Assembly (NCBI GenBank): GCA_965603355.1 | Contig: CBFDCQ010000001.1 | Coordinates: forward strand, 106,350 to 170,349 | Length of the DNA stretch: 64,000 nucleotides | Reading direction: 5' to 3' | DNA from: an uncultured bacterium | GTDB lineage: Bacteria; Hydrogenedentota; CAZGCA01; CBFDCQ01 | Shown: positions 3,401 through 50,775 of the stretch, one piece after another | How positions within the stretch are numbered: the stretch's first letter is position 1 | Layout of the letters: each line of letters starts with the position of its first letter | Program-made: the position numbers and the translations under genes | Notes under the pieces: generated by a model | What the model was told of the DNA's origin: nothing | Seen by the model: the letters and a program-made list of their open reading frames with translations, nothing else | The model's database searches: none

Positions 3401-6400
3401 TTACCCTCCAACCGGCACGATCAACTCCACGGTGTTGTTCAATCCGTTTATCTCTTGAACTGCGTTGTCCGGATCGACGATCACCTTGAGGTGACACGTT
3501 CGGGCACGTTTCGGTGCCCAGATTATCGCGACATCTGCGATCTTCGGTTCCAGATCGTTCGGCGCGTCGAGCTTCTCTATGACCGCTTCGCCCAGACGTT
3601 GACCTCCCTCTTCAAGCACGACGCTCACGTTTTCGGCACCGGCAGAGCCAATGTTATGGACCGCGACGCGTACAGTAACGTTGTGCCCGGCGCGAGGCTC
3701 AAACGGCCGAACCTCCACATCGCCGTCGGTCACCGCCAGATCAGGCAGATTCTGAGGTGGAGGTTTACCTTTCTCGATCTGGGCAACCTGTATGAGGGTC
3801 ATCTCGCGACCTGTCAGTTCCACCTGAACGGGAGTGCCCCGTTCCTTGACCTCGACGACCTGTTCAGGGACCTCCTGATCGTGTTGGCCGTCACCGTCCC
3901 GGTCCGGTCCGACGCGCAACTGGTACTTGCCGGGCTCCAACCTCCACAGTTTCAGGTACACCTTTCTGCCAACCGGTTCAAAGTTGTACGCAAGCACTTT
4001 GAGCGACCGGCGCGTCGCGTTCGTGACCAGCGCGGCAAAGTCCCGTCTGGTTCCCGACCAGGTTACCGCATAGTATGGGTACTCCGCGCCCGAGCCGCAT
4101 CCGCCCGTGTACATCGACAGGAGATCGTCCACCCCGCGAACGTTCACGGAGTCCGTGAACTTAACCTCGCTCGTCAGCAGCGGGAAATTGTATTTCGTGC
4201 TGTTTATGGAATCCCGACAGGCCTGCACCAAGTGCGTCTTATCGCCCGTCAGGAGGAATCTCGTGTACGGGGCACCTCGCGCCGCCAGGTAATCATCAAA
4301 CGGTGTGACTCGCTTCAGCAAGCGGAGCTTGCACCCGAATCGGGCAAACCCGCTTTCGTCAAGCATCTTTGCCGCCCAGCCCGCAGTGCCTTCCGCCGCG
4401 TCCCCGGCCGGGTTTTGCCAGTGCCCCTGCGCGATTTCCAGCCCGGAGTCGATCGGATACAACAACTGCAGGTCGCCCGTCAAGTCGTACGTCGCGAGTA
4501 GCTGATCGTATAGTGGTGCTGCCGCGCCGGAGCCCCAGTTGTAATCGTCCGAGCGAAGACCGGCGCGGTGCCAACTGTCCGAGTACCCGCCGATCTCGTC
4601 TCGCGCGAAAGAGACCGCCGCCGGAACGACACCCTGTGGTTTACCTTTTTCGGTGCGCAGCGCGTCCTCCACCCATGCCTTCCCCCAGTCCTCAAACAGT
4701 CTAACCAGGGCCGGATTGTGGTTGTACCAACACAACCATCGTCCCGGCTCGGCGGCACGGGCGTTCATGGGGACATCGACCGCGCGCGGCCGTCCTTCAT
4801 CAACGTTCTTTGAAGAGAACCACGCGGACTTGAAATGTAGATGCCCGCGCTCGTTTACGCCTGTCCAGACGTCGCGCATGTGTCTCATCGTTTCCATACA
4901 GCGTTCGATGTAGAGCGGGTTGCCGTAGTCCACCGCGACCATAAGGGGCAGTGTGTTGCTCGTGAACCTTGCGCCGTGCTTAACGTCCCGTACGGTCGCG
5001 CAATAACCCTCCTCTACAGCGTCCGAAGCCCAGATCTGTTCCGCCAGCCTGCGTATGGCTCCGCGAGCGCCGTCGTCGTCCGCAACGAGCACGGCGATCA
5101 GCCACCAACGCAGCAACTCGCTGTCCTTCTCAAGCCCGCTGCCGAACTCGCCGTCTTGAGTCTGTGCATCACCAACCCAGTAGTCGATCACTTCCATGAC
5201 CCTGCGAAGCGCTTCCCTTTGAGCGGCCGCCCACGGCGGCGCGCCTCCCGCCTCCACGGAATAGGCCGTGGGATGCGCGATCTGCTTGCCTCGATACATC
5301 GCGAGCAAGTCAAAATCGGGATAATCGTCAGCGAGCATCCTCAAAACCTGGTCCGCCTCCCGACGCTGGTACCCACTATGCTGGTCACGCCACATCCAGT
5401 ACCATATTCTTCCGAGATACCATACGGCCTGATCGTACAGCGGATCCCGAGGATCAGCGGCTATCTGCGCCATGAGGTCCGCCGCTATCGTGAACCTCTG
5501 CCGAACCGATAAACCGGTCTGCTGCTCGGCATAACTCCATGCGCCGAGATCGTAGTAGTAGACGCCAAGCAGGTACTTCTGCACCAGATCGAACCGGTTG
5601 GCCAGTTGCGTTTCATACGATGCGGCATATTGCGTGAGCGACCGTGCAGCATCCCGTACGAGCGATTTGGCGTTGTTTGCGTCCAACCTTCCGCCAATCG
5701 CGAGCTTGCAGTACGCCCGAAGCGTTTCATCAGGTATGTATCCGAACTGTTTCATGGCCAACTCATACTGGCCGACGTCGAACAGCTTCTTGCCCCGCTC
5801 GTAAACCGGAAAACCAAGCGGCGCGTCCGAAACCAGCTTCCCTTCTTCCACCCTGAAAGGTTCGTACGCAGGTACCTTGAAAACGATGCCGTTAACTTCG
5901 ACACCTTCATCGCAGGTCACGCGGATCGTCGTGGAATTCGCCTTGACCTCCAGGGGAAATCGCAGTGTCCTGCGCGGCCGCCCGGGCAGAGCATCGACGA
6001 ATCTGCCGGATTTGGCCATGAGAACACCCTCGGCGTAGACGCGCACATCCATGCCTGCCCGGCGGCTTTCTCCCACGGTGACCTCCACGAAGTACGTGCC
6101 AGACGGAACGTCGGCGCGGAAGTCAACCTGGCGCGACCCAACAACCCCATCGCGACTCAACTCGTCGGCGGTGAGGTCGTTTCGGACCTCCACCTCTCTG
6201 TCCGGTGCCTGTGTCCAGCCGTACCGTTTCGTCGGATCGTAGAGGCTCTCCTTGGTTACCTTCGTGTATCCCTGCTTAAGAGTGCTGTTGACGTCGCCCA
6301 TGTCGTAACCGTAGTTGGTGGCTGCGTCAGCGCGTGAGATGTGAATGCATAATGCCGCTGCAAGAACAGAGGTTGTTGCACAAGCAACTGTGAGACTTGA

Positions 6401-6415
6401 CTGGAATAACCGCAT
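3401..6415 (-). CDS. large secreted multidomain protein: N-terminal beta-sandwich, (alpha/alpha)-toroid-like putative polysaccharide-active domain, C-terminal CARDB domain
   Basis: Probable start is MRLFQSS... at 6415, with GGAGGA 9 nt upstream, rather than the ORF-track start at 6463. A signal peptide is followed by a Trp/Tyr-rich helical core, and the C-terminus (HNVTVRVAVHNIGSAGAENVSVVLEE...TVELIVPV) looks like a CARDB domain. The catalytic assignment is inferential. Confidence 0.55.
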   Translation of the reverse strand: MRLFQSSLTVACATTSVLAAALCIHISRADAATNYGYDMGDVNSTLKQGYTKVTKESLYDPTKRYGWTQAPDREVEVRNDLTADELSRDGVVGSRQVDFRADVPSGTYFVEVTVGESRRAGMDVRVYAEGVLMAKSGRFVDALPGRPRRTLRFPLEVKANSTTIRVTCDEGVEVNGIVFKVPAYEPFRVEEGKLVSDAPLGFPVYERGKKLFDVGQYELAMKQFGYIPDETLRAYCKLAIGGRLDANNAKSLVRDAARSLTQYAASYETQLANRFDLVQKYLLGVYYYDLGAWSYAEQQTGLSVRQRFTIAADLMAQIAADPRDPLYDQAVWYLGRIWYWMWRDQHSGYQRREADQVLRMLADDYPDFDLLAMYRGKQIAHPTAYSVEAGGAPPWAAAQREALRRVMEVIDYWVGDAQTQDGEFGSGLEKDSELLRWWLIAVLVADDDGARGAIRRLAEQIWASDAVEEGYCATVRDVKHGARFTSNTLPLMVAVDYGNPLYIERCMETMRHMRDVWTGVNERGHLHFKSAWFSSKNVDEGRPRAVDVPMNARAAEPGRWLCWYNHNPALVRLFEDWGKAWVEDALRTEKGKPQGVVPAAVSFARDEIGGYSDSWHRAGLRSDDYNWGSGAAAPLYDQLLATYDLTGDLQLLYPIDSGLEIAQGHWQNPAGDAAEGTAGWAAKMLDESGFARFGCKLRLLKRVTPFDDYLAARGAPYTRFLLTGDKTHLVQACRDSINSTKYNFPLLTSEVKFTDSVNVRGVDDLLSMYTGGCGSGAEYPYYAVTWSGTRRDFAALVTNATRRSLKVLAYNFEPVGRKVYLKLWRLEPGKYQLRVGPDRDGDGQHDQEVPEQVVEVKERGTPVQVELTGREMTLIQVAQIEKGKPPPQNLPDLAVTDGDVEVRPFEPRAGHNVTVRVAVHNIGSAGAENVSVVLEEGGQRLGEAVIEKLDAPNDLEPKIADVAIIWAPKRARTCHLKVIVDPDNAVQEINGLNNTVELIVPVGG

Positions 6416-6600
6416 CTTTGGCCATCCTCCTCGAATTACGCCACCAATCGTGCTCTGGCCCACTCAGATCTTACCAGAATACCCGGCACATTGGCAACAG
6501 ATCGCGCCTAACGTACCGAAATCGCTATATTTGGGATGCAATTCAAACGGTTTTGTGCTAACGTACCGGAGAAAAGCGGCTCAACGGAGGTACTCGACTA

Positions 6601-10745: not shown

Positions 10746-10928
10746 TGGGCAGAGCAAGCCCTGCCCCTACATTGTTGTCCGTGGATTGGGCGTCTTGTCC
10801 GACAAAACCAAGGCGGGCAGGATGCCCGCCCTACATTTGGGCGTGGCATTTTGGCGCACGCTGAACACGAGACTCGGCCCTACGGAAGGCATTTCTGACC
10901 GGCACGGGCGGTTCGCGAACCGCCCCTA
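10746..10928 (-). repeat. cluster of three REP-like elements (GTAG + GC-rich palindrome), same orientation
   Basis: Units lie at 10746-10769, 10811-10833 and 10905-10928. On the minus strand each reads GTAGGG followed by an imperfect or perfect palindrome (gggcag..ctgccc, ggcgggca..tgcccgcc, gggcggttcg/cgaaccgccc). They sit in the 500-nt spacer downstream of the FG-GAP gene. Confidence 0.65.
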
Positions 10929-10955
10929 CACCGCACTGTTCGCGGCTCGTCCTTA

Positions 10956-13772
10956 TCAGCCCGGCTTTAGCGGGCTCCTCTTTGCAGCCCGCCGGGCACA
11001 TAATGCCAGAGTCGCCACAACGATAGCGGTAATCGTTCCCGCAAGGACAGGGTAACGGACGGCCAGTCCTACAAAAGCGACTGCCGGTTTCAGAACGAAG
11101 CGCACCGCTGCCCTGAGAGGCGCTCGGATCGACATGAACCGCGCAAGCGGCGGGCTATGCCTGTAGTACGCTCTGACGAGCGCACATCCTGCCCGATTCG
11201 TCAGCAGATACTTGTCCCTGAACTCGCGTAAGGCAGCTACCTCGTCAACCGAGGGCGTGCCGTACGCCGCGGTTGCTATGAAACAGGGCCCGCTGCTGCT
11301 GCCTCCACCGAGGCGCCGAGGAAGTGACGGTATGGAACCCGGGTTGAGCGGGTTCGTTCCCTGTGCGACCTCCGTTCCGTCTGAGTAACCGTCGTTGTCA
11401 GTATCACGGTCAAGCGGATCGGTACCGCAGACATTGACTTCCTGGCCGTCGGTAAGCCCGTCTCCGTCGGTATCCGGGTTGTCTCGGTCCGTCCCGATCA
11501 CCGCCTCCTCATTGTTGGTCAGACCATCATGGTCAGCATCGGGAGACTGGGTAGATAACAGGAGCGCCAGCAACCCGCCCTCTCTGCCGGCTGCAAGATC
11601 GGGGTATCCGTCCTCATCGAAATCCCCCGCAACGAAACTACGCAGGTTCGCTCCCACCTCGTAGGGGAAGGCCGCCTGAAACGTGCCGTCACCATTGCCA
11701 AACAGGATCGAGACACCCCCCCCACCATAATAGTACCAAGAAAACCAGTTTGTCACGGCCAAATCGCTATGACCGTCCTGGTCGAAATCCGCTATGATTA
11801 TGCCCTCAGGAGAAGTGCCCGCCGTGTAGCCGACCGCTTCCCCGAACGTGCCATCGCCGTTGCCGAGCAGCACAAGAACTTCGTTTCCGTAGTCGTTGGC
11901 AACCGCGAGGTCGGCATGCCCGTTGAGGTCGAAATCCCCGCTCGCGATGCCTTTGGGTCCTCCCCCTGCGGCATATGAAAGTGCCGGCTGGAACGTGCCG
12001 TCACCATCGGCCAGGAATATGGACACTTCGTCGCTCTCCGTGTTGGTCAACGCCAGGTCGGTGCGGCCGTCGCCATCAAAGTCGGCAACCGCCATGCCCA
12101 CGGGTCCCTCTCCCACGGCATATGAAACGGCGGACTGGAACGTTCCATCACCATTGCCGAGCAGCACAGAAACGATGCCTGCCTCCCAATGCTTCACCAG
12201 CAAATCCGCGTAACCGTTGCCATCGAAGTCGCCAGCCGTTATGCTTCCGGGTCCTTCTCCCACAGCATATGAGACTGCCGATTGAAAGGTCCCGTCACCG
12301 CTGCCCAGCAATATCGACACGTCGTCGCTGTCCCGGTTGGCTACAGCGAGGTCGGTGTGGCCGTCCCGGTCAAGGTCAGCGGTCGTCAAGCATAGGGGAT
12401 AATCACCAGCGGTGTAGTCTATGGCGGTCTGAAACGTACCGTCTCCGTGACCAAGCAGCACGGATACGCTGTCGTCGCCACCGTTGGCCGCGGCGAGATC
12501 AGTGTGGCCGTCCTCATCGAAATCGCCGACGGTGGCATCGGACAGGCGACGTTCTACACTCTGACTCAACGCCGCCTGGAAGGTGCTGTCACCGTTCCCG
12601 AACACTACTGAAACGCTCCCGTCCCAACCGTCCGAATCGTAGCTGCCCCACTCCGCCATGATGAGGTCCGGCTGGCCGTCGCGGTCAACGTCCTCCATCG
12701 CAAGGTGATACGGGTGCGTGCCGGACGCATAGCTCAAAGCTGTCCGGAATGTACCGTCACCGTTGCCTAGCAGTACCGTGACGGCGTCCCTGGACATGCT
12801 GCTCACCGCCAGGTCCACGTGCCCGTCGCCGTCACAGTCCCCGATCGTGATACGCGTTGGACGGAACCCCGTATCGTAATCCATCGCTGTCCCGAACGTG
12901 CCGGTGCCGTCGCCAAGCAGCACAGACACTGCGCCGCTTATCCCCCTGGTCACCGCGAGGTCAGTGTATCCGTCCTGGTTGAAATCCCATGACGCCAGGC
13001 TGCCAACGTACTCTCCGACGGGGTACTCGACCGCTTCCTGGAACGTCCCGTCACCGTTGCCGGACAGGACCCAAATGTCGCCAGCCTGAGTTTCCCAGTC
13101 TCCTTCGGCTACAACCATGTCGGTATGGCCGTTCCCGTCAAAGTCACCCGTGGCAATATCTTCAAAGTGCATGTGCGCGAGCCCTTCAAGCACTTCATAC
13201 TCCACCGCTTCCTGGAACGTACCATCACCGTTACCGAGACAAACCAAAACGCCCCAGTAGGCCGAGCTTGTCGCGAGGTCAATATGGCCGTCCTCGTCAA
13301 AGTCTCCTGTCAGAATGATGCCCGGGGAGAAGGCAGCATAATTGACCGCTGTCTGAAACGTACCGTCACCGTTGCCGAGCAGCACGGAAACGTCATTGCT
13401 CGTTATGTTCGTCACAGCCAGGTCCGTATGGCCGTCTTCATCGAAGTCCCCCGTCGCTATATGGTCCGGCACCGACCCGGCATCGCAGTTCCACGCTGTA
13501 AAGAACGTGCCGTCGCCCCGACCGAGCAAAACGGGAACGATGTTCCACTCTTGGTTAGTCACGATCACGTCGATAAGGCCGTCCTCATCGAAATCTCCCG
13601 TGGCCATACGGTGCGGCGAGAAGCCAAGCCAGTTGCCCACCCGACTGGGAAACAAGGGGTGTTGTGCGGCGGCTGTGGCTTGGAGGCCGACCACCACCGC
13701 GAGTGTGACGAATATCAAAACCGGGCTATGCAGTTTTCCACCAACTCCCCCTTCATCGTGCGCGTTTCTCAT
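10956..13772 (-). CDS. secreted FG-GAP/VCBS repeat protein: two 7-bladed beta-propellers, thrombospondin type-3-like Ca-binding repeats, C-terminal 'GPCFIATAAYG' box, TM helix and basic tail
   Basis: Fourteen repeats of '(T/A)GDFD(E/G)DGHTDLAV' with interleaved 'LLGNGDGTFQ'. TSP3-like 'DTDGDGLTDGQE / DTDNDGYSDGTE' repeats follow. The C-terminus has ...SSSGPCFIATAAYG... then a hydrophobic helix (VLAGTITAIVVATLALCA) and RRAAKRSPLKPG. The start is taken at MRNAHDE... (13772) ahead of a signal-like segment; the ORF-track start is 13838. Confidence 0.85.
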   Translation of the reverse strand: MRNAHDEGGVGGKLHSPVLIFVTLAVVVGLQATAAAQHPLFPSRVGNWLGFSPHRMATGDFDEDGLIDVIVTNQEWNIVPVLLGRGDGTFFTAWNCDAGSVPDHIATGDFDEDGHTDLAVTNITSNDVSVLLGNGDGTFQTAVNYAAFSPGIILTGDFDEDGHIDLATSSAYWGVLVCLGNGDGTFQEAVEYEVLEGLAHMHFEDIATGDFDGNGHTDMVVAEGDWETQAGDIWVLSGNGDGTFQEAVEYPVGEYVGSLASWDFNQDGYTDLAVTRGISGAVSVLLGDGTGTFGTAMDYDTGFRPTRITIGDCDGDGHVDLAVSSMSRDAVTVLLGNGDGTFRTALSYASGTHPYHLAMEDVDRDGQPDLIMAEWGSYDSDGWDGSVSVVFGNGDSTFQAALSQSVERRLSDATVGDFDEDGHTDLAAANGGDDSVSVLLGHGDGTFQTAIDYTAGDYPLCLTTADLDRDGHTDLAVANRDSDDVSILLGSGDGTFQSAVSYAVGEGPGSITAGDFDGNGYADLLVKHWEAGIVSVLLGNGDGTFQSAVSYAVGEGPVGMAVADFDGDGRTDLALTNTESDEVSIFLADGDGTFQPALSYAAGGGPKGIASGDFDLNGHADLAVANDYGNEVLVLLGNGDGTFGEAVGYTAGTSPEGIIIADFDQDGHSDLAVTNWFSWYYYGGGGVSILFGNGDGTFQAAFPYEVGANLRSFVAGDFDEDGYPDLAAGREGGLLALLLSTQSPDADHDGLTNNEEAVIGTDRDNPDTDGDGLTDGQEVNVCGTDPLDRDTDNDGYSDGTEVAQGTNPLNPGSIPSLPRRLGGGSSSGPCFIATAAYGTPSVDEVAALREFRDKYLLTNRAGCALVRAYYRHSPPLARFMSIRAPLRAAVRFVLKPAVAFVGLAVRYPVLAGTITAIVVATLALCARRAAKRSPLKPG

Positions 13773-13957
13773 TGTTCTTCCCTCCGTTATTGATATAACG
13801 ACCTTGCCCCTCTTGCCGAGCCGTACAGGCTCCCTCACACTCCTAATGACGTGAAAGCGGAATTACGATCAAACAGAATGCGTTTCTTCTTGGCCCTGCC
13901 GTGCCGGAAGCCCCCAGCCGCCGCAGCCTTACAAAGAGAACCACGGTCGCGTGCGCT

Positions 13958-16900
13958 CTAGTAGGACACCCCCAGGACCGGAGCTGTCGTCCATCCCCAC
14001 TTGATCAGTATCTTATCCGGCGGCAGGAGTGACGTGTTGCCTAGACCGTACCATGGGCCGAAATAGTCCGTATCGCCCACGCACCCATACTTCAGCTTGA
14101 AGTTCTTCACGTAACCGACTTCGCCGCAGATGTGCAGTTGCGTCTCCGGTCTGCCTTTAAGGATCATCATGTTTATCGACGCATCCGGCGCATCGATGTA
14201 GATATCGCAGTAATCCTCCCAATCCAGGTAGGCCTCCTCCCCGCAGGCCACAATCAGGTCACCGCCACTGTCAGTAACCTGAATCGTCAGCGTGTTCGTA
14301 TCCAAGTCGCGGTAGGCAACACAGCCGGGTTCGGTGTAAGTTACCTTTATGTCTCCGATATACTCCCTGTACGCCGCTCTCGTGCTGGCTGGCGACTCGC
14401 CTGCAACGGCACGCTCCCCGATATCGTCGTCGTCAAACGGTACGTCGAACGGCTTCGGTTTGAGCCCGACCGGCAGTTCGAGTTCTCCGAACCGCTCTTC
14501 GCCCTGCGCAGGGACGGAACGAATGTCCGGGTACTCCACTCCGAGCACAGGCGCGGTGGCAGCGCCCCGCTTTATCAGGATCTTCTTCGCCGGATCCTCA
14601 GCCGTGCTGCCCAGGCCGAAGTCCTCGCCGTAAGAGAGCGTGTTGCCTACGTACCCGTGCTTTAGTATGAAGTTCTTAACGTAACGGACCTGCCCGCAGA
14701 CATAGAGCTGTGTCTCCGGTCGCCCCTTGAGGTTGATCTTTTTGAGCGACGCATCGGGCGCGTCAATCACGATATCGCACCGATCGTTCCAGAAGAGAGC
14801 GGCCTCCTCCCTGGCGACCACGGTCAGGACTCCCGGCTCGTCGCCCCATACCGAGATGAGGAGCGTATCGGCCAAGTCGTCATAGCACGCGAAACAGGTC
14901 GGCTGGCTATAAACCACTTTAACGTCATTCACGAAGGCCTTGTATGCGCGACCCTCTGCCGGCAGCGCCTGGTTGACGTGAACTACGGTCGTCGCGCTGT
15001 CGGATCCCGTCGGACCAGATACAGTGAGCGTGACCGTGTAGTCGCCCGTGAAGTAGTAAGTATGCGCCGGGTTCTGCGTCGTGCTCTCGTACCCGTCACC
15101 GAAATCCCACGACCAACTCGTGATCATGCCCGTCGATTCGTCCGTGAAGTCTATGGCCAGCGGTCTGGTGCCGCCAGATACGCCGGCGCTTAACGCTGCA
15201 ACAGGCGATAGCAGCTCCACGTCACTGTACTCGTCGGCGCCGATATCGTACTCCGTGCCGGTGCCGTCCGCGCCAACACCCGGCACATCAACAGGACGCG
15301 GCTCGCCGTCCATATCGGTAGACGGCGCGCCATCGCCGGTGCCTGCATCAATGCACGGAGACGTGGCGCCGAGGTGGTAGTTGCCTGCTCCGGGGTCAAC
15401 GAATTGCGGGTCGCCGTCCAGATTGTCCTCGGCTTCAGCCAAGACTGCATTGAGCCCGTTCGGGCCCGTTGCATCGGTGATGGTCACAAGACCTTCATTG
15501 AAATACACCCCGTCCGGATTGTTGTAGAACAGGCAGTTCTTCACGATGGGATCCGACTCGTCGTCGTTCTCGTAAATCGCGTGGTTGTTGTTGTTCGCGA
15601 AAATGGTGTTGACGACCATCCCTTCACTGTCATGGAAAAGCACGCCTCCTGCGCGGTCGTCAGCGGAATTATCTACAAGCGTGCAGTTTGCGACTCTGAC
15701 GTCCGTTTGGAACTCAAAATTCAGTGCGCCGCCGTGGTATGAAGCATGATTCCCTACAATCAGACAGTTGGCGATGACCGTGGAGAAACCTTCGTGACAT
15801 TCGATCGCTCCCCCTTTACGACTCCGATTGTTCAAGAAGGTGCACCGGTCGACCTCAAGAAACGATTCATAAGAACTGATTCCGCTCCCCAAGGCGTCCG
15901 TCACGTTGTCCTCGAACAAGCTGTCACTTACGGACGCACTCCCTCCCCACACCTGGAACCCTCCTCCTTCGAACCCGAAGTTATCCCGGAACTGGCACTG
16001 GACAATAACTGCAGAGGATTGAACCACGGCTATGGCGCAGCCATATCGGCCTTGGTTTCCCGTGAACAGGCAATTCTCGATGGTGATACCCCAGGCGCCG
16101 CTGACGCACTTGATTCCACCGCCGCCCCAAGCTTGACTACTGTCCGCGTTGCCGCCGGTGATCGTGAAGCCGTCGATACCGACGTTATACAGGCCGTCGC
16201 AGACAATCACGTGAGGCGTAGCACCCTGCCCGTCCAACGTGGTCACATGCACATCCGGGTCGCGGTCCCGGAACAACGCGTCGCCCGTGGCCGGAAATCC
16301 TCCGTATAGCGCCATAGCGCTCTCCAGCATGACTGGGGAACCGATGTTGTACGTATCCGCCGCCACCCATACGTCCTTCCCCTGAGCTGAAGCCGACGCT
16401 ACTGCATTGTGGAGGCTGTGCAGCGCCGTGGCCCAGGAGTTCCCGGTCGTGTTGTCACCGTTCGGCGACACAAACACCGGGTCACGCAACTGCTGTACCG
16501 GATCGGTTCCGTTGTCGACCTCCTCTCTGTCGGTCCATCCGTCACCGTCCGTATCCACCTGCTGCGGGTCCGTGCCATGAACGTACTCCTCGCCGTTCGT
16601 GAGTAAGTCGCCGTCCGCATCCGCGTCGGCATCGTCCTCAAGCGGCAGGAGGTCGTTTGCCTGTTCCCACCAGTCCGGCATGCCGTCCTCGTCGGAATCG
16701 ACGAGTTCATCGAAGCCGATATCATAGCCTAGATGCACCGGCCGTTCCTCGCCGTCGAAATCGCCCGCCGGCGCATTTTCGCTCGTGCCCGCGTCAATGC
16801 ACGGCGAGGAGGCCTGCAAGTGGTAGCCACCCGCGTCAGAGTTCACGAATAGGGGATCGCCCTCGATGTTGCCTTCCGCTTCCGCCATAACCGCATTCAA

Positions 16901-18028
16901 ACCGCCAGGCCCTTCCGCGTTAAAGATGGTGTCCGACCCGTTATAGAAATAGACGCCGTCGGGATTACCGAAGAACAGGCAGTTCTTCACGGAAATGTCC
17001 TGTCCGGAGTCATTCTCAAAGATAGCGTGGCCATTGTTATTCACCAGGACCGTGTTGGCTATTGTAGCGTCGCAACTGTGGGCGAACACACCGCCTCCCT
17101 TGGGGGCGGAGTTGTCGACAATGGTGCAGTTCATGATTGTGATATTCGCTTCAAATCCCAGGCTTATACCGCCGCCATGATCGGTCGATGTATTCCCAAC
17201 AACCAGACAGTTGGTGATGTTGATCTCATTGCTCTGGTGAATATCCACCCCGCCGGAGCCGTATGAACCTCTGTTGTCAGTGAAAGTACAGTGATTAACG
17301 GTTATGGAGCAGTCGTACCCGCTGATACCTCCGCCGTCGCGCGCTGAGTTGCCATGGAACAGACAGTCAGTGACCGTAGCTTGGGCTCGGTGCAGTTTAA
17401 GCCCTCCACCTTCGCTGGCGCTGTTGTACCGAAACTCACATCCCGTGACAGTCGCGCTGGCGTTATCGACATTCACTCCGCCGCCAAAGCCACTTATCCT
17501 ATTGCCCTCAAGAACGCAGTCCACTATCGTGACATCCGAACTCCCGCCGACACAAGCAATCGCACCGCTGCCGGCATACCCAGGACCTCCCCCTATGCAG
17601 TCTGTAAGCGCGAGTCCGTCGATCCTCACACCGCTCACATTATCGCAGACAATCAGGTTGTCGGCGGCGCCCTGGCCGTCCAACCTCGTAGCATACTCGG
17701 AAGGATCCCGGTCATCGAATCCCGGGTTACCCGCCGACGGGAACCCGCCGTACACAGTGACACCACTCTGCATCGTTATTGCAGAACCGATACTGTAGTC
17801 ACCCGCCGCTATCCAGACATCCTCGCCCCCGGACGCGGCCTGCGTTACCGCGTCATGGATGCTGAGAAGGGCAGTGGCCCACGAATCACCCGTCGTGTTG
17901 TCCCCGGTCTGGGCCACGTACACCTGGGCATAGCACTCTCCCGCTAAGACGAGGCACAACGAAAGACAGAGGACATATAAAAGAGGCCGAAGGAAGCCTG
18001 AATGCCGTTGGTGTTTCATGATTTCCAT
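13958..18028 (-). CDS. giant secreted Pmp-like right-handed beta-helix protein: two duplicated beta-helix modules, TSP3 repeats, PKD domain, two tandem novel Cys-containing C-terminal domains
   Basis: Signal peptide (LLYVLCLSLCLVLAGECYA). There are many GGA[ILV]/GGGI and FxxN motifs (CTFTDNRGS, CLVVGNTST...), as in chlamydial polymorphic membrane protein repeats / PbH1. TSP3-like DTDGDGWTDREE repeats and a PKD-like segment (WDFGDGYESTTQNPAHTY) follow, then two ~138-aa homologous C-terminal domains. Confidence 0.85.
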   Translation of the reverse strand: MEIMKHQRHSGFLRPLLYVLCLSLCLVLAGECYAQVYVAQTGDNTTGDSWATALLSIHDAVTQAASGGEDVWIAAGDYSIGSAITMQSGVTVYGGFPSAGNPGFDDRDPSEYATRLDGQGAADNLIVCDNVSGVRIDGLALTDCIGGGPGYAGSGAIACVGGSSDVTIVDCVLEGNRISGFGGGVNVDNASATVTGCEFRYNSASEGGGLKLHRAQATVTDCLFHGNSARDGGGISGYDCSITVNHCTFTDNRGSYGSGGVDIHQSNEINITNCLVVGNTSTDHGGGISLGFEANITIMNCTIVDNSAPKGGGVFAHSCDATIANTVLVNNNGHAIFENDSGQDISVKNCLFFGNPDGVYFYNGSDTIFNAEGPGGLNAVMAEAEGNIEGDPLFVNSDAGGYHLQASSPCIDAGTSENAPAGDFDGEERPVHLGYDIGFDELVDSDEDGMPDWWEQANDLLPLEDDADADADGDLLTNGEEYVHGTDPQQVDTDGDGWTDREEVDNGTDPVQQLRDPVFVSPNGDNTTGNSWATALHSLHNAVASASAQGKDVWVAADTYNIGSPVMLESAMALYGGFPATGDALFRDRDPDVHVTTLDGQGATPHVIVCDGLYNVGIDGFTITGGNADSSQAWGGGGIKCVSGAWGITIENCLFTGNQGRYGCAIAVVQSSAVIVQCQFRDNFGFEGGGFQVWGGSASVSDSLFEDNVTDALGSGISSYESFLEVDRCTFLNNRSRKGGAIECHEGFSTVIANCLIVGNHASYHGGALNFEFQTDVRVANCTLVDNSADDRAGGVLFHDSEGMVVNTIFANNNNHAIYENDDESDPIVKNCLFYNNPDGVYFNEGLVTITDATGPNGLNAVLAEAEDNLDGDPQFVDPGAGNYHLGATSPCIDAGTGDGAPSTDMDGEPRPVDVPGVGADGTGTEYDIGADEYSDVELLSPVAALSAGVSGGTRPLAIDFTDESTGMITSWSWDFGDGYESTTQNPAHTYYFTGDYTVTLTVSGPTGSDSATTVVHVNQALPAEGRAYKAFVNDVKVVYSQPTCFACYDDLADTLLISVWGDEPGVLTVVAREEAALFWNDRCDIVIDAPDASLKKINLKGRPETQLYVCGQVRYVKNFILKHGYVGNTLSYGEDFGLGSTAEDPAKKILIKRGAATAPVLGVEYPDIRSVPAQGEERFGELELPVGLKPKPFDVPFDDDDIGERAVAGESPASTRAAYREYIGDIKVTYTEPGCVAYRDLDTNTLTIQVTDSGGDLIVACGEEAYLDWEDYCDIYIDAPDASINMMILKGRPETQLHICGEVGYVKNFKLKYGCVGDTDYFGPWYGLGNTSLLPPDKILIKWGWTTAPVLGVSY

Positions 18029-18504
18029 TTTCTGAACCTCCCTTCTTGCAGACCGCTCTCACCTGAATTGCCTTGCAGTTCTTCGAGATTGATGGAAGAT
18101 CGTCGAGTAACATACTCGACCGGTATGAACATGTTGACGTCTTTCGTATTCGGCGACGATGAACGGGGCTTCAGGAGGGTAGGGAGGATATGCTTGTCGG
18201 GCAGGACAATCCGCAACCGCAGAATGCCGTGGTTCATTGCCTCCCCCTCCATGCCTGTCGGCACGCGTAGAAGGTCCCAAGCACCATGCAGCCAGAATCT
18301 AAGCTCTAACGTGAATCTGTCACGATCTTGTGTGACAGCGATCTAAACACGCAGGCTCTCCCCGACGAGTATAGTGTAACCTAAATGTCGTGGGCAATCA
18401 ACAAGAAACTGCCCCGGAAACCTGAGTTCAAGTCGAACGGCGCACGCAGGTATTGCACAACTGCATTCTGGGGGGATCGTTTCTGACAAGACTCTATTAC
18501 TACG

Positions 18505-20034
18505 TCATCTAGCGGAGGTCTGCGGTGGCTGCGCGTCCGGCGACTGGAATTCGCCATTGCGATGCAGCTCCAACATGATGCCTACGACCTCAGGATCGAA
18601 CTGCTTACCGCTATTCCCGGTCAACTGAGCTTCTATCTCCGCATCGGTCAGGGCGCCGCGGTACGCCCTGTCAGAAGCCATAGCATCATAAGCGTCGGCG
18701 ACTATGATCGTGCGAATACTCATCGACAAAGTATCGGCTTCGATACCGTCAGGATAGCCTCTCCCGTCCTGCCGTTCATGATGATGCCTGATAATGGGTA
18801 TGGCCGGAGTCAGGAACGTCACCGGCGCCAGGACTTCACAGCCTGCTACAGGATGACGCCGCAGCATATCCCATTCTGCATCGTCCAGCGGACCGGGCTT
18901 GTTGAGCACAGTCTCCGGTATGGCGATCTTGCCGATATCATGAAGGGTCGCCGCCGTGCGCAGACAGTCCAGATCGTCGCTGCTCATGCCCAACATAGTC
19001 CCGATCCGCTCGCAGATGGCTGTAACGCGCTGCGAGTGACCGTGTGTGTAAGCGTCTTTCGCCTCAAGCGCAAGGACCAGCGACCGAATGGTCATCAGGT
19101 ATGCGTCCTGGAGGCTGGCAAACAGTCTCGCGTTGTCGAGAGATACCGCGGCCTGGTTGGCAAGAATGGACAGCGTTTTGAGGTCGCTTGCAGTGAACGG
19201 GCGACCGTTTCGTTTCCTGTTGATGTTGATGACACCAAGCACCTGCTTGGAACTCTTCACGGGAAGCGAGACACCCTCCTCGTCATGCGTCTCGATCGGG
19301 ACGGACACGAAGGATTTGTCCGGCAGATCGTTGGAGGCATCCTTGAACTGCGCGTCCTGCTCGACGTCCGCGATGAGCAGCGGCTTGCCCTCTTTGGCCA
19401 CCCATCCGGAAATCCCCTCGCCCAGTTTCACAACCGCTGCGCTTTTCACATCGTCCGGTATGCCTATTGACACGGCTATCCTGAGCGTATCGCCGTCCCG
19501 GTCGCGCAGCATGATCGAGCCTCGTGTAGCCCCGGCTTTTGCCAGAGCGGATTTCAGCACGAACTCGAGCAGCGATTTCTCTTCCCGAAGCGAGTTTATC
19601 GTCTCGCTGATCATGAACAGCTCGCCAAGCTCGCGCAGCCGCGCGTTCTCGTTGAGCAACCTCTTTCGCTCCAGAGCGCCGGCCACAGCAATTCGCACCT
19701 CAGCGATATCGAACGGTTTGAGAACGTAATCGAACGCACCTCCCCTCACAGCAGCGCGCGCCGTATCCAGGGTGGCGTTTCCCGTCATGACGACCGGGAT
19801 AATGTCGGGCAGAACTCGCATCGCCTCCCGGATCAGTTCGATACCGTTCATTCCGGGTAACCTTATGTCGGTAATCAGCAAGTCGAAGTGATGGTCGCGC
19901 ATCTTCTCCAGCGCACTATCCGCTTCGGCGGACGATTCGAGCGCGTATCCCTCATCGCTCAGTATATCCACCAGCAGTTCGAGCACCGCCGGCTCGTCGT
20001 CAACGACGATTATTCTCTCTCCGTTGGCCATCAT
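18505..20034 (-). CDS. response regulator with REC, GAF and HD-GYP domains (c-di-GMP phosphodiesterase type)
   Basis: The REC domain has the phosphoacceptor motif (IVVDDEP...DLLITDIRLPGMNG). A GAF-like middle region follows. The C-terminus has HDIGKIAIPE...RHHHERQDGRGYPDGI (HD-GYP signature). Confidence 0.9.
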   Translation of the reverse strand: MMANGERIIVVDDEPAVLELLVDILSDEGYALESSAEADSALEKMRDHHFDLLITDIRLPGMNGIELIREAMRVLPDIIPVVMTGNATLDTARAAVRGGAFDYVLKPFDIAEVRIAVAGALERKRLLNENARLRELGELFMISETINSLREEKSLLEFVLKSALAKAGATRGSIMLRDRDGDTLRIAVSIGIPDDVKSAAVVKLGEGISGWVAKEGKPLLIADVEQDAQFKDASNDLPDKSFVSVPIETHDEEGVSLPVKSSKQVLGVININRKRNGRPFTASDLKTLSILANQAAVSLDNARLFASLQDAYLMTIRSLVLALEAKDAYTHGHSQRVTAICERIGTMLGMSSDDLDCLRTAATLHDIGKIAIPETVLNKPGPLDDAEWDMLRRHPVAGCEVLAPVTFLTPAIPIIRHHHERQDGRGYPDGIEADTLSMSIRTIIVADAYDAMASDRAYRGALTDAEIEAQLTGNSGKQFDPEVVGIMLELHRNGEFQSPDAQPPQTSAR

Positions 20035-25143: not shown

Positions 25144-27594
25144 CTAGTCATCGTGGGGCGGCGACACGTCTACTCCGCCGCAACAAACGTTTGCCGCATC
25201 TGGTGCTGTGCAGCACGCACGGGAGTAGTCCGGCGATACTCGGCGCAGTCGTTCGACGACTTCCGGCAGGGCCCCGAGCACGTAATCTACATCTTCCTGA
25301 GTATTGTCTCGTCCCAGAGAGAATCGGATACTCGCGTGTGCCGTTGTAGGCGTGACGCCCATCGCGCGAAGAACGTGAGAAGGTTCGACCGAGCCGGACG
25401 TACATGCTGAACCGGTGGACACCGCGATACCTTTCATGTCCAGACCAATAAGAAGCGCTTCCCCCTCGGCACACTCGAAACTCATGTTGAGCATGTTAGG
25501 CAGCCGGCTCGCGACCGAACCGTTTGTCCGCACGAGATCGATCCGCTCCTTTATACCGACCTCAAGCCGATCCCGAAGCGCCGCGAGACGAGCCGACTCA
25601 GCAGCCGCATCGCTGCACGCAAGCTCGATCGCTCTGGCGAAACCGACTATCCCCGGCACGTTCTCCGTACCTGCGCGACGGTTCCGTTCCTGATACCCCC
25701 CGTGCAGCAATGGCGCGATCCGTGTGCCTTTCCTGCTGTACAGCGCGCCTACTCCTTTCGGACCATAGAGCTTGTGCGCCGATATAGTCAGCAGAGCCAC
25801 GTTGAGCCGGTTCACATCGACCGGCATCTTTCCAACAGCTTGGACGGCGTCCGTATGGAAGGCAATTCCTCTTTGCCTGGCGATATCAGCAAGATCATCA
25901 ATAGGTTGAACCGTGCCGGTCTCACTGTTTGCGAGCGTAACGGAAACCAGGGTCGTGTCCGGCGTGAGAGCTTCTCGCAAGCTTTCCGGATCGACCAGCC
26001 CGTCACCGTCAACCGGCAGATAACTTGACGAGAACTCTCTGTCTTCCAGTTCACGAAAGCAATTGAGTACCGAGTGATGTTCGATCTGGGACGTCACGAT
26101 GTGCCTGGCCCTCTTCTCGTATGCGCGGGCCGCACCCTTGACCGCCATATTGTTGCCCTCGGTTCCCCCGCTGGTGAAGTATATCTCCGTGGGATCGGCG
26201 CCGATGCAGTCTGCAACCGTGTTCCGCGCGTCCTCGACGGCCTTTCGCGCCTCCTGCCCGCAAGTATGTATGCTGGAAGCGTTGCCGAACGTGCCGGTGA
26301 AATACGGCAGCATCGCCTCCAGCACTTCTTCCCGGACGGGCGTCGTGGCTGCATGGTCCATGTACACTTTTCGCATTGTTTCTCTCCTACGTGTACAACC
26401 TATCGGGGCCGTGTCGGATTCCCCGGAGACGTAGGGGCGAGGCATGCCGCGCCCCGACAAAGCATCCATGGCTTGCGCGAGATCGTCGATCAAGTCTTCA
26501 GCGTCCTCGAGTCCCACCGAGAGTCGAACCAGCCTGTCGTTTATGCCGAGGCGGTCGCACTCTTCACGCGGATAACTCAGATGCGTCATACGCGCCGGCA
26601 ACGTTACGATGCTCTCAACGGCGCCCAGGCTCACCGCGAGCGACCAGAGCTTCACCTTTTGCAACACCCGTTTGGCAACATCTTCGTCACGCGCCAGGAA
26701 CGATACCATCGCGCCGCCGCCGGAAGCCTGTCTCGCGTGGATATCGTTATCCGGATGCGTATCGAGACCCGGGTACAACACCTGCTCCACGTCGGCTCGG
26801 TCGAGCAGCCACTCCGCGATCTGTCGCGCGCTCTCTTGCTGCACGTTCATCCTGGCTTTCAGTGTCTTCATCCCCCTCATGAGAAGCCAGCAATCGAAAG
26901 GGGAGGGGACGGCACCTACTGCGTTTTGACGAAAATGTATCTTCTTCGCCAACTTATCATCATTGACCACCGCTAATCCGGCAATGAGATCGCTGTGTCC
27001 CCCGAGGTACTTCGTAGCGCTGTGAATCACAATGTCCGCGCCGGCCTCCAGAGGCCGCTGAAGATAGGGCGACATGAACGTATTGTCCACCATAAGAAGG
27101 ATGTCCTTCTCGCGCGATATCGCCGACAACTCCCCCAAGTCGGTGATCTTCATCATCGGATTCGACGGGGTCTCGATCAGGATCGCGCGCGTCCTGTCGC
27201 TCAGCGCCGTCTCGACCGCCGCAATGTCCCCGGTATCCACCAGGCTGAACTCTATGCCGAAGCGCGGGAACAATCTGGTCAGGATCCTGTACGTGCCTCC
27301 GTACAACCCCTCGGTGGCTATGACATGGTCGCCGCTCTCCAACAACATCAAGCATGTTGAGATAGCCGCCATACCAGAGGAGAACGCGAATCCGCACTCG
27401 CCGCCCTCCAACAAGGCGATGTACTTCTCAAGCACGTCGCGTGTCGGATTGCCGGTGCGCGAGTAGTCGTATCCACCTTGCTGATCGGGGCTCGTGCGCT
27501 TGAACGTCGAGACCTGATATATCGGTGTACTCAGCGCCCCCGTATGCGGACACGTGCTACCGGGATGGTGTATTAGTCTCGTACCTATTCTCAT
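25144..27594 (-). CDS. in-frame fusion ORF: N-terminal Cys/Met-metabolism PLP enzyme (cystathionine beta-lyase / gamma-synthase family) + C-terminal cysteine desulfurase (IscS/NifS-like)
   Basis: Residues 1-~385 match the MetC/MetB family (YSRTGNPTRDVLEKYIALLEGGE, SATKYLGGHSD, RLSVGLEDAEDLIDDL). Residues ~407-816 are a complete class-I desulfurase (MRKVYMDHAATT..., SAHKLYGPKGVGALY, STGSACTSGS). An internal AGGAGAG-N5-ATG sits at the junction (~26376-26392) and +1 / +2 frame stops occur in the linker, so a 1-nt indel would resolve it into two genes. Confidence 0.7.
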   Translation of the reverse strand: MRIGTRLIHHPGSTCPHTGALSTPIYQVSTFKRTSPDQQGGYDYSRTGNPTRDVLEKYIALLEGGECGFAFSSGMAAISTCLMLLESGDHVIATEGLYGGTYRILTRLFPRFGIEFSLVDTGDIAAVETALSDRTRAILIETPSNPMMKITDLGELSAISREKDILLMVDNTFMSPYLQRPLEAGADIVIHSATKYLGGHSDLIAGLAVVNDDKLAKKIHFRQNAVGAVPSPFDCWLLMRGMKTLKARMNVQQESARQIAEWLLDRADVEQVLYPGLDTHPDNDIHARQASGGGAMVSFLARDEDVAKRVLQKVKLWSLAVSLGAVESIVTLPARMTHLSYPREECDRLGINDRLVRLSVGLEDAEDLIDDLAQAMDALSGRGMPRPYVSGESDTAPIGCTRRRETMRKVYMDHAATTPVREEVLEAMLPYFTGTFGNASSIHTCGQEARKAVEDARNTVADCIGADPTEIYFTSGGTEGNNMAVKGAARAYEKRARHIVTSQIEHHSVLNCFRELEDREFSSSYLPVDGDGLVDPESLREALTPDTTLVSVTLANSETGTVQPIDDLADIARQRGIAFHTDAVQAVGKMPVDVNRLNVALLTISAHKLYGPKGVGALYSRKGTRIAPLLHGGYQERNRRAGTENVPGIVGFARAIELACSDAAAESARLAALRDRLEVGIKERIDLVRTNGSVASRLPNMLNMSFECAEGEALLIGLDMKGIAVSTGSACTSGSVEPSHVLRAMGVTPTTAHASIRFSLGRDNTQEDVDYVLGALPEVVERLRRVSPDYSRACCTAPDAANVCCGGVDVSPPHDD

Positions 27595-44524: not shown

Positions 44525-46084
44525 TTGAAAATGCGAGCGAGACGGTTCATTTCAGTGTGTTTGCTGTTGGTGTTGGCGGGCAGTGCGATAATGCCGGCCG
44601 CCATGGCGTGGGGCCCGAGGGCAAGCCGAGCGATATGTCTCTGCGCTCTTCAGGTTCTCAGACGCGACTTCCAGGATGTATTCAGGGGCAGGGAAGAGGA
44701 CTTGGTTGCCGGAGCCATGATCTCGGACCGGGATATGGCCAAGTACGCGTTGCAAGGAGGTCAGATCGAACCGTTCGAGCCAATCGTGCGCGAGATATCT
44801 TTGCTCAGGGAGGTGAACGAGCGCGGCATGACCGACTACCTCGTGTACCGGTTCGGTGTTCTCGCTAAGATGTCTTCCAACGTCGTGCAACCATACGGAG
44901 TCCCTCAGAATGAAGAGGAGAAAAAACTTAAAGCGCGACTCGACGCCGATATTGAGGAACACATTGGCAAGTTGAAGCTCGAGTACCGCCCCGAGGATCG
45001 AGAATCCATCTACTATCCCGCGCGGTATTTCGAAGAGCGACTGAGATTCATCAAGGATGACAAGTACTTCATCAAAGTGGAATACACGGATGGCGATGGA
45101 TACGGTGATTATGCCAAACGCGCCGTGGCCAAACATTTCGAAGACGCGGTCAATACCGTCGCTGACGTTGTGTACACGGTGTTAAGCGAACGGAAATACT
45201 CCGGCGAGACACCGCCCTCGCCCAGGGATGTCGCGCTTTATTACGTGGGGCAGGTAGAGTATTTCCTCAATAAATCCCATAACGAAGAAGCGGAAGAGTC
45301 TTACGCCATATTCACCGAGGTGAATCCGGGTCTTGCCTCGCCATACGAGGAGCTTGGCGATGCGTACTACCGCGCCGGCCAATACGAGCGTGCCATGAGA
45401 GAGTACAGGCGCGGACTCCGTATGAAAGGAAGTTGGCCCGAAGTTGAGGATAAGATCGTCAGATACTACACGCAGCAGGGTGCCATACTCATCTCTCAAA
45501 GGACGCGAGAGGGGCTCCAGCAGGCTCGACAGCTCTTTGAATTGGCGCTCGAAGTGTCTCCTGGAAACCCGATGGCCGTCAGCGGGCAAGAGAATGCCAA
45601 GGCGGAAATCCAGGCGATGGACGCAAGGCTCGAGAGGGACCGAGAGTTGCTTACCGGAGCCGACCGCCTGTTTGCAGAGGCGCAGAGAGCCCAGACTGGC
45701 CAGGATCTCGCTAAGGCGTTAGACCTGTACGAAAAAGGCATCGCCGTGTACAGCCTGGTATCCACCGAATTCGAAGATACGCGTGAGGCCGCGACTACCG
45801 GCGGCGAAGACTGTGCGATCGCAATCCGTAACATGTTTGCCAGCGCGCTGCTGGAAGTCCGGGACGTTATGAACAAAGCTTCCCAGGCCGAGCTTGACGG
45901 TAACTATGAGCAAGCTATAAGATTTTACGACCGCGTTCCTGGGACGGTGTCGGTCATTACTGAGAAGTATGCCGAGCAGTATAATGAGGCCCAGAAGTCA
46001 ATCCAGAGCGCTGAGATGAAGAAGACCAATGCTCAAGTCAGGATCGAGGAGCTGAAGACCGAGAAGCCAACCGCGCGCCCTTGA
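44525..46084 (+). CDS. secreted TPR-repeat protein
   Basis: Signal peptide (FISVCLLLVLAGSAIMPAAMA) and TPR-like helices (AYYRAGQYERAMREYRRGL..., ALDLYEKGIAVY...). The TTG start lies 5 nt after AGGGGG. Confidence 0.6.
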   Translation: MKMRARRFISVCLLLVLAGSAIMPAAMAWGPRASRAICLCALQVLRRDFQDVFRGREEDLVAGAMISDRDMAKYALQGGQIEPFEPIVREISLLREVNERGMTDYLVYRFGVLAKMSSNVVQPYGVPQNEEEKKLKARLDADIEEHIGKLKLEYRPEDRESIYYPARYFEERLRFIKDDKYFIKVEYTDGDGYGDYAKRAVAKHFEDAVNTVADVVYTVLSERKYSGETPPSPRDVALYYVGQVEYFLNKSHNEEAEESYAIFTEVNPGLASPYEELGDAYYRAGQYERAMREYRRGLRMKGSWPEVEDKIVRYYTQQGAILISQRTREGLQQARQLFELALEVSPGNPMAVSGQENAKAEIQAMDARLERDRELLTGADRLFAEAQRAQTGQDLAKALDLYEKGIAVYSLVSTEFEDTREAATTGGEDCAIAIRNMFASALLEVRDVMNKASQAELDGNYEQAIRFYDRVPGTVSVITEKYAEQYNEAQKSIQSAEMKKTNAQVRIEELKTEKPTARP

Positions 46085-46332
46085 GAGCGACACGAACGGA
46101 TTGAGCCGGAGCTCTCCTTCCTTTGGGTCCGCCTGATCAACGCGGAAATGTCATCTGCTTTCGCACCGGACTAGCTGGTGTAGAATCAGCCCGGCTGTTG
46201 CATAGCAGGCGCATCTCAAGACGCGAGCTAATAGACGTTGCGACTCAGGCTCGTTCTCCGGATAAGGATGCCTTCCCTCGTCAGCAGGCTTTCCGACAGG
46301 CTGCTGCCAGTTTGGCAATCGGACTAAACCAC

Positions 46333-46361
46333 TTGTCATTGTGGCAGAACTGTGGTACAAT
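46333..46361 (+). promoter_or_regulatory. sigma-70-like promoter TTGTCA-N17-TACAAT at the start of the long groES leader
   Basis: TTGTCA is at 46333-46338 and TACAAT at 46356-46361. It would give a ~430-nt leader before groES. Confidence 0.4.
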
Positions 46362-46612
46362 GAGCGCGTCGTCGGACGTTTCTGTGTTTCGCGCCGAAGC
46401 CAAACCCCTTTATCAGTCGGGTTTTGCGAGCGTCGCCGCTTTACCGCGTTCGACAGAGTGGCTACAGGCGCTACGCGGTGCATCGCGCTGAAGCGTTTGC
46501 CGAAACGGCGACAACCGCATTGTGCAATGAGACAGGCAAAGCCTGGACCTGGGCGATGGAACCCGTTTGTTCAAAGGGTATTACACAAGGGTACCGCCAA
46601 CATTGCGGCCGT

Positions 46613-46628
46613 TGGCACAAGGTTTGCA
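46613..46628 (+). promoter_or_regulatory. sigma-54 (-24/-12) promoter TGGCAC-N5-TTGCA, ~170 nt upstream of groES
   Basis: TGGCAC is at 46613-46618 and TTGCA at 46624-46628, an exact match to the TGGCAC-N5-TTGCW core consensus. No CIRCE (TTAGCACTC-N9-GAGTGCTAA) occurs in the leader. Confidence 0.5.
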
Positions 46629-46795
46629 GTAATAGAGTGGGATTTAGTGCGTCTGGTGCGTAACGTCGCGAGAAGCAGATCACGGTTAAAGGCTGAATAG
46701 TCTGCGTGAAAGGAGGCAGGAGCGACGATAGGAAACGATTGGAACCGAGCACAAGAAGTTGTGAGAAACAGAACAGGCGAAAGGAGTGGATGACA

Positions 46796-47083
46796 ATGAA
46801 GGTACGACCATTGGCTGATCGCATCCTCGTCAAGAGGGTCGAAGCGGAAGACACGGTGAAAGGCGGGATCATCATTCCCGACACCGCAAAAGAGAAGCCC
46901 CAGGAGGGCAAGGTCGTCGCTGTCGGTCCGGGCAGACTCGGCGAGGACGGCAAGCGTATGCCCATGGAGGTCAAGAAGGGCAACCGGATTCTCATGGGCA
47001 AGTACGCCGGTACTGAAGTGAAGATTAATGATGAAGAGCACCTTATTATGCGCGAGGATGACGTTCTTGCCGTAATAGAGTGA
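46796..47083 (+). CDS. groES: co-chaperonin GroES
   Basis: [46 protein letters not shown]... AAGGAG lies 9 nt upstream of the ATG at 46796. Confidence 0.95.
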
Positions 47084-47129
47084 CCGGATCGACGACTCGC
47101 ATCCGGCGAGAAGAAAGGAGTGATGAACG

Positions 47130-50771: not shown

Positions 50772-50775
50772 ACCC

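Follow-up and report, generated by a model that had tools for sequence, protein, structure and literature searches.

Two large genes, which we call A and B, lie next to each other on the minus strand of a contig from an uncultured bacterium (CBFDCQ010000001.1 of GenBank assembly GCA_965603355.1, positions 106,350 to 170,349). We refer to these 64,000 nucleotides as the window and give all positions within it. The genes encode large proteins with signal-peptide-like N-termini, and an earlier reading of the sequence alone (the sequence-only reading) had proposed that they form a co-secreted adhesin or S-layer-like complex. The question that the locus raises is whether A and B are indeed a dedicated pair, and how proteins of this kind are held outside the cytoplasm. 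The explanation that we favor, and that we hold to be somewhat probable, is that A and B are two Sec-exported envelope proteins with different anchors and not a dedicated pair, and that a cassette at the C-terminus of A (a PKD domain followed by a tandem tail) is a surface-retention or sorting module. The tail pair is the sole uncatalogued element of these two proteins.

13958 to 18028, minus strand: gene A, 1356 amino acids (aa); signal peptide, two beta-helix units, PKD domain and tandem C-terminal tail (open reading frame, translation, Pfam and NCBIfam)
10956 to 13772, minus strand: gene B, 938 aa; signal peptide, 14 FG-GAP blades, three thrombospondin type 3 (TSP3) repeats and a CFI-box-CTERM domain

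The tail of A and its family

The tail of A consists of two domains and the linker between them, described here with AlphaFold2 (AF2) models and their per-residue confidence (pLDDT).

14531 to 14950, minus strand: tail domain 1, about 140 aa, an uncatalogued short beta-solenoid as modeled by AF2 (pLDDT about 80–93)
14381 to 14530, minus strand: acidic linker between the tail domains, predicted to be disordered (pLDDT below 50 at tail residues 152–202)
13961 to 14380, minus strand: tail domain 2, terminating in ...KILIKWGWTTAPVLGVSY, the last residue of A; the most conserved part of the family, with invariant columns

The two domains are 55% identical to each other, a tandem duplicate at the extreme C-terminus that the sequence-only reading had overlooked, and the tail homologues have acidic runs at the same linker position. 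We found no relative of the tail in Pfam or NCBIfam, even at E<=1, and no sequence relative in the PDB. Models of the C-terminal domain (CTD) of the type IX secretion system (T9SS), of the TIGR04183 or TIGR04131 type, did not match A, B or the isolated tail, again even at E<=1, and the carbohydrate-binding module (CBM) families in Pfam showed no similarity to the tail. The idea that the tail is a degenerate copy of the PbH1 helix of A itself was rejected at an hhalign probability of 0.1%.

The tail does occur in other proteins. A word-indexed search of 5.8 billion proteins returned 15 relatives, all of them metagenomic, and a profile search with the tail against 1.84 billion representatives gave 93 matches. 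Of these, about 15 are large proteins that end in a PKD domain and the tandem tail, and about 45 are small (150–250 aa), with a signal peptide and a single tail-type domain; about 24 match the PKD edge of the profile only. The family of this ~140-aa domain, which the models show as well folded, comes to about 70 cluster representatives among the 1.84 billion. No relative was confirmed in the 185,579 GTDB species genomes, where the pattern scan needs exact short peptides and absence is not proven. There are no further copies of the tail or of the CFI-box within the window.

A metagenome scan for the tail found 11 loci, ten of them from one metagenome (Ga0114922). The ten Ga0114922 contigs encode at least 11 distinct large tail proteins (693–2126 aa), twice as back-to-back gene pairs. 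In these, the passengers are Peptidase_C25 with its propeptide (two cases), BNR_2 (two cases), CotH with LTD, CarboxypepD_reg repeats and SBBP propellers. Our reading of the representative sequences suggests further passengers, including a probable S8 subtilase (P0020), beta-helix proteins and others. Aligned with one another, the tails match over their full ~335 aa in 45 of 45 pairs, with a median identity of 58.5%; the passenger parts of the same proteins show similarity in 18 of the 45 pairs, over short stretches only. The PKD domain is retained together with the tail in all of the paralogues, and 8 of 10 of them end in GVSY or GVAY. All of the full-length tail proteins have signal-peptide-like N-termini, as judged by eye. 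Given this distribution, the most likely role of the tail, in our view, is retention at the surface or sorting, as a module specific to this lineage.

The small proteins (L091:9850-10740; P0032-P0079) carry a signal peptide and one tail-type beta-solenoid domain, often followed by an acidic stretch and then a conserved amphipathic C-terminal helix (e.g. ...SPGDKVAIFQSLLLNAE). One of these single-domain genes (L091:9850-10740) is on the same contig as a large tail protein, 5.5 kb away. From their sequences we regard the small proteins as candidate partners or scaffolds for the tail. Two tail-gene homologues (L002:3-1699 and L003:3-1602) are split across two frames, which reflects frameshifts or assembly errors in repeat-rich genes.

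The passenger of A and the anchor of B

Ahead of the tail, A has the following parts.

17927 to 18028, minus strand: signal peptide, residues 1–34 (...LAGECYA|Q), with a basic n-region, a hydrophobic core and an AxA-like site, as judged by eye
16709 to 17926, minus strand: beta-helix unit 1, PbH1 repeats and the first choice-of-anchor-Q segment (Beta_helix, NosD, NF041518)
16490 to 16708, minus strand: TSP3 linker, three DxDxDG-type repeats at residues 444, 468 and 492 (TSP3_bac, motif scan)
15224 to 16489, minus strand: beta-helix unit 2, a DUF5123-like stretch and a choice-of-anchor-Q segment at residues 883–934 (Pfam, NCBIfam)
14969 to 15223, minus strand: PKD domain (PKD_4, E=2.1e-15, residues 953–1018; Pfam)

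The strongest match of A in Pfam is to Beta_helix (PF13229), with E=5.5e-34 and 117.5 bits over four stretches against a cut-off of 25.9; NosD also matches strongly, and DUF5123, TSP3_bac and PKD are found as well. In NCBIfam, the choice-of-anchor Q model NF041518 scores 63.3 bits over two stretches (cut-off 25). We take the name choice-of-anchor to mean domains in proteins whose C-terminal sorting or anchor signal differs by lineage. The two halves of the passenger are an internal duplication, residues ~35–440 against ~515–935, at 47% identity over 418 aa and joined by the three TSP3-type repeats. A is a generic PbH1 beta-helix protein with choice-of-anchor-Q domains, and both of its halves match this known group (NF041518, PF13229). 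What differs from the group is the anchor position, which in A is held by the uncatalogued PKD and tandem beta-solenoid and not by PEP-CTERM, LPXTG or a T9SS CTD. The signal peptide, with a Kyte-Doolittle value above 1.6 at residues 10–20, is the sole hydrophobic segment of A, and NCBIfam detects no PEP-CTERM, LPXTG or other short transmembrane-type sorting signal. Proteins identical or >=90% identical to A make up 6 cluster members, on contigs of up to 183 kb. The JGI contig Ga0111031_1000321 terminates inside gene A, at window position 16158.

The sequence-only reading had described the beta-helix as being of the chlamydial Pmp type, which would make A a type V autotransporter adhesin. A does share a right-handed beta-helix passenger and some FxxN motifs (11 in A) with these proteins, and there are weak matches to Chlam_PMP (32.2 bits summed) and POMP_repeat (18 bits). 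No single repeat stretch is significant on its own, however, and the motif scan found only two GGA[ILV] motifs, so the description was overstated next to the strong Beta_helix and NosD scores. Neither the autotransporter beta-barrel (PF03797) nor the PMP middle domain matched at E<=0.01 in Pfam and NCBIfam, and AF2 models the C-terminus of A as a soluble pair of beta-solenoids. The missing barrel and the weak repeat matches rule out a Pmp or autotransporter identity, to which we give next to no chance. Pfam also found no RTX GGxGxD repeats (PF00353, HemolysinCabind) in A or B, and no SLH (S-layer homology) or S-layer family model matched either protein in Pfam or NCBIfam. The earlier statement that both proteins lack an autotransporter barrel, LPXTG, RTX repeats and a recognizable T9SS CTD therefore holds in the Pfam and NCBIfam scans.

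Protein B is built as follows.

13665 to 13772, minus strand: signal peptide, residues 1–36 (...LQATAAA|Q), judged by eye; AF2 helix at residues 18–34
11673 to 13625, minus strand: FG-GAP/VCBS propeller region, 14 blades, probably 7+7 (Pfam, motif scan, AF2, Foldseek)
11358 to 11540, minus strand: TSP3 linker, three repeats at residues 745, 767 and 790 (TSP3_bac, motif scan)
11079 to 11285, minus strand: CFI-box-CTERM domain, CFIATAAYG...LREFRDKYLLTN...YYRHSPP (NF041770)
10959 to 11078, minus strand: C-terminal hydrophobic helix, about residues 908–928, and basic tail RRAAKRSPLKPG

The assignment of B as a 14-blade FG-GAP/VCBS protein, also made from the sequence alone, is backed by several lines of evidence. 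FG-GAP_3 (PF13517) matches with E=2e-90 and 297.7 bits over 13 stretches and FG-GAP (PF01839) with 159.6 bits, and the motif scan counts 14 DxDxDG blade motifs. In the AF2 model residues 50–700 form 14 blades (pLDDT above 90), and confidence drops at 403–407, after blade 7; the blade count and this drop fit two seven-bladed propellers. Foldseek with this model returns multi-propeller proteins such as DDB1, SF3b130 and Elp2. B thus shares calcium-motif blades (14) and tandem propellers with FG-GAP/VCBS multi-propeller proteins, and differs from them by its combination of TSP3 repeats with a CFI-box-CTERM. Metagenomes hold at least 8000 FG-GAP homologues of B, and no full-length orthologue is among the matches listed.

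The anchoring of both proteins had been called unclear, which is wrong for B. The CFI-box-CTERM model NF041770 scores 86.9 bits (cut-off 40) in the last ~110 residues of B and covers profile positions 1–69 of 69, so that the anchor is recognizable and already catalogued. When B is aligned with 16 relatives (17 sequences), CFIATAAYG, LRxFRDxYLLTN and YYRxSPP are invariant or nearly so. AF2 predicts the CFI-box region to be helical (pLDDT about 88–92). At the C-terminus the Kyte-Doolittle value exceeds 1.6 at residues 901–909, and AF2 places a helix at 908–932, followed by RRAAKR. B shares with CFI-box-CTERM proteins the full model, the box, the motifs, the hydrophobic helix and the basic tail, and nothing sets it apart from them. 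The nearest CFI-box relatives found are short or partial, some of them named Ca. Hydrogenedentes, Omnitrophota or Planctomycetaceae.

Gene layout and the conservation of the pair

The sequence-only reading had the layout right in that two long open reading frames lie on the same (minus) strand, at 13958-18028 (A, 1356 aa) and 10956-13838. The second of these is the longest frame listed for B, which has a GTG start and would give 960 aa. We believe that B most likely starts at the ATG at 13772 and not at this GTG. The ATG is preceded by a Shine-Dalgarno-like sequence, and gene callers chose it in four other assemblies as well (938-aa product). This start gives B 938 aa and leaves 185 nt between A and B, in place of the 120 nt (119–120) claimed earlier.

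13781 to 13785, minus strand: GGAGG ribosome-binding site, 8 nt 5' of the B start codon (ATG, 13772–13770), read from the sequence
10809 to 10833, minus strand: terminator-like hairpin 3' of B, with an 11-bp stem, 7 GC pairs and then a T-rich run
18296 to 18397, minus strand: two sigma-70-like promoter matches 5' of A, 9/12 positions each; weak, by consensus match only

We found no terminator-like site in the A-B spacer, and its fold energy is unremarkable (z = -0.5). Together with the strong terminator-like site 3' of B, this makes it plausible from the sequence that A and B are co-transcribed. The region 3' of B also contains TGTAGGGSSRG three times within 170 nt (window 10761-10930, minus strand); it occurs nowhere else in the window, and the chance expectation is 0.21. 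GC-rich hairpins begin at the first two copies at least, and the terminator-like site is the middle copy. This cluster may be an intergenic repeat of the repetitive extragenic palindromic (REP) kind. Directly 5' of A, across a 476-nt gap, is a response regulator with receiver, GAF and HD-GYP domains (18505-20034, minus strand; an RpfG-type cyclic di-GMP phosphodiesterase), and by its position it could link cyclic di-GMP signaling to the expression of surface proteins.

If A and B were a dedicated co-secreted complex made from a two-gene operon, the tail of A might dock on the propeller of B and the CFI-box helix might anchor both. The genes adjoin on the same strand in the arrangement described above, FG-GAP propellers such as the integrin-type ones are typical ligand-binding scaffolds, TSP3 linkers occur in both proteins, and the two genes lie side by side in all assemblies of the population that the window comes from. 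However, these assemblies differ by 0–5 codons, and because they are near-clonal they lack evolutionary weight. Outside this population, none of the 15 other genomic contexts of tail genes (0/15) has an FG-GAP or CFI-box neighbor. There the genes 3' of tail genes encode TPR-GroES-GroEL, L-PSP, a protein with sulfatase-type formylglycine-generating enzyme (FGE-sulfatase), PA14 and BNR domains, or another tail protein, and the gene 3' of B has no similarity to the ~370-aa genes 3' of the tail genes in L003 and L004. One assembly (L105:5686-8502, equivalent to window 10956-13772) has a nonsense codon in B, E360*, with A intact and differing in one residue, so that B may be dispensable, or else E360* may be an assembly error.

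The TSP3 linkers themselves were correctly seen in both proteins. TSP3_bac (PF18884) scores 36.9 bits in A and 60.1 bits in B (cut-off 25), with three motifs each, and the strict form DxDxDGxxDxxE is present in 3/3 repeats of B and 2/3 of A. Many other tail proteins of the lineage have them too. Since these linkers are widespread in the lineage's secreted proteins, they are not a signature of the A-B pair, and of the proposed shared modular toolkit there stands the sharing itself, as a lineage-wide building block and not as something specific to the pair. The check on neighborhood conservation suggested with the earlier proposal thus finds A-B adjacency in near-identical assemblies only. Only one near-clonal population shows the A-B pairing, and with no comparative support, no full-length B orthologue, no S-layer model and the nonsense codon in B, we consider the dedicated complex very unlikely.

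The window GroEL is at most 76% identical to those of Verrucomicrobiota and other metagenome-assembled genomes (MAGs) of the Planctomycetes-Verrucomicrobia-Chlamydiae (PVC) group among the matches listed. The order TPR, GroES, GroEL, GldA/F/G-like ABC transporter (ABC_tran, ABC2_membrane, ABC_transp_aux/DUF7088) and DUF4340 is common to window 44525-54188 and L001:3543-13253. In L001 a beta-helix gene with the tail is directly 5' of the TPR-GroES-GroEL block, and in the window about 26 kb separate gene A from it. An 816-aa open reading frame (25144-27594, minus strand) fuses a Cys/Met-metabolism pyridoxal-phosphate enzyme to a class-V aminotransferase. On a contig that is 99.986% identical (L096:2441-4891; 2 mismatches in 13.9 kb) a stop codon replaces a window Ser and gives two genes; the difference is due either to a stop-codon polymorphism or to an error in sequencing. 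Finally, the window encodes a third large protein (3401-6463, minus strand), whose open reading frame has 1020 aa here and is called at 1004 aa in other assemblies. It probably starts with a signal peptide and carries a CARDB domain at its C-terminus; there is no NCBIfam match, no tail and no CFI-box.

What the tail may do

In the explanation that we favor, A and B would follow a common plan of a passenger, a calcium-type TSP3 linker and a C-terminal anchoring module. Both have the hydrophobic N-terminal segment expected of exported proteins, in line with the sequence-only reading, which had called them secreted. They would be neighbors that possibly share a transcript and have separate anchors. 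B would display its double seven-bladed FG-GAP propeller as a ligand-binding scaffold, and its CFI-box-CTERM (conserved helical region, transmembrane helix and basic tail) would hold it in a membrane. A would display two right-handed beta-helix units, which could be adhesin-like or could bind or modify polysaccharides. The cassette of PKD and two beta-solenoids would direct its carriers to a common extracytoplasmic site, or retain them there, by non-covalent binding, and that site may be the cell surface or a shared scaffold.

There are two other ways to explain the tail. It could be a substrate-targeting module (a CBM or lectin) by which various secreted enzymes reach a single polymer in the environment, and not a surface anchor, which we think unlikely. 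The passengers (C25 and S8 proteases, CotH kinase, BNR, beta-helix, propellers) act on substrates that have no chemical relation to one another, which is unusual for a substrate-specific CBM; one tail on such passengers suggests that they share a location and not a substrate. Strong conservation of the extreme C-terminus (...GWTTAPVLGVSY) and the lack of similarity to Pfam CBM families also speak against this role. Alternatively, PKD and tail together could be a true secretion signal for an outer-membrane translocon that possibly cleaves it, an analogue of the T9SS CTD outside Bacteroidota. The range of cargo is like that of the T9SS (C25 gingipain-type peptidases, subtilases, adhesins), and the C-terminal position, the conserved last residues and the many paralogues in one population would all fit. 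But no T9SS CTD model matches, no T9SS or translocon gene recurs beside the cargo genes, and the cassette, with about 330 aa, greatly exceeds known signals in length. In one protein, P0023, the tandem domains come directly after the signal peptide and are followed by a long C-terminal extension. This N-terminal placement and the stand-alone small proteins suggest that the tail is an autonomous binding domain and not a pure C-terminal export signal, and we regard the secretion-signal explanation as distinctly improbable.

Several points also weigh against surface retention or sorting by the tail and against the wider explanation of A and B given above. The placement in P0023 does not fit a signal that must be C-terminal. 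All-vs-all clustering of the open reading frames in the window and the 15 loci found no recurrent neighbor that could be a sorting enzyme, receptor or translocon, and the neighbors that are shared come only from the orthologous synteny of L003, L004 and L094. The AF2 model of the tail was built on a 16-sequence alignment. The localization proposed for A and B draws on sequences and models, with signal peptides judged by eye. For B, we found no description of the function or mechanism of CFI-box-CTERM (processing, sorting partner) in the literature searched. As for a shared transcript, the 185-nt spacer is long for an operon.

In the role that we favor, the tail would be a functional analogue of the T9SS CTD, dockerin and SLH domains. 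It resembles them in its logic, in that a single C-terminal module recurs on numerous unrelated enzymes secreted by one organism, and like dockerin it is an internal tandem duplicate. It has no sequence or model match to any of the three, and its predicted fold is a short beta-solenoid, whereas the T9SS CTD is a beta-sandwich and dockerin an EF-hand pair. A more far-reaching idea, which we put forward tentatively and consider less likely than not, is that PKD and the tandem beta-solenoid are an unrecognized localization system in a PVC- or Hydrogenedentes-like lineage. The cassette would then be a tag, comparable to dockerin or a CTD, by which an entire secretome is fixed to the cell surface or to an extracellular scaffold: proteases of the gingipain and subtilisin types, CotH, and sialidase-like, beta-helix and propeller proteins. 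The small single-domain proteins could in that case be the scaffold or adaptor, through stacking of beta-solenoids.

Environmental bacteria very commonly have large exoproteins of the beta-helix and FG-GAP types with TSP3 linkers. The A-B pair is ordinary in this respect and the anchor of B is already catalogued, so the novelty lies in the tail of A, which is absent from Pfam, NCBIfam and the PDB. The tail behaves like a localization tag common to the lineage's secreted proteases and adhesin-like proteins. Defining it as a domain would improve the annotation of these MAGs and mark a candidate surface secretome. Together with the small single-domain proteins, it may offer a handle on how exoenzymes are positioned in a diderm lineage whose proteins of this kind carry no recognized T9SS or PEP-CTERM signal.

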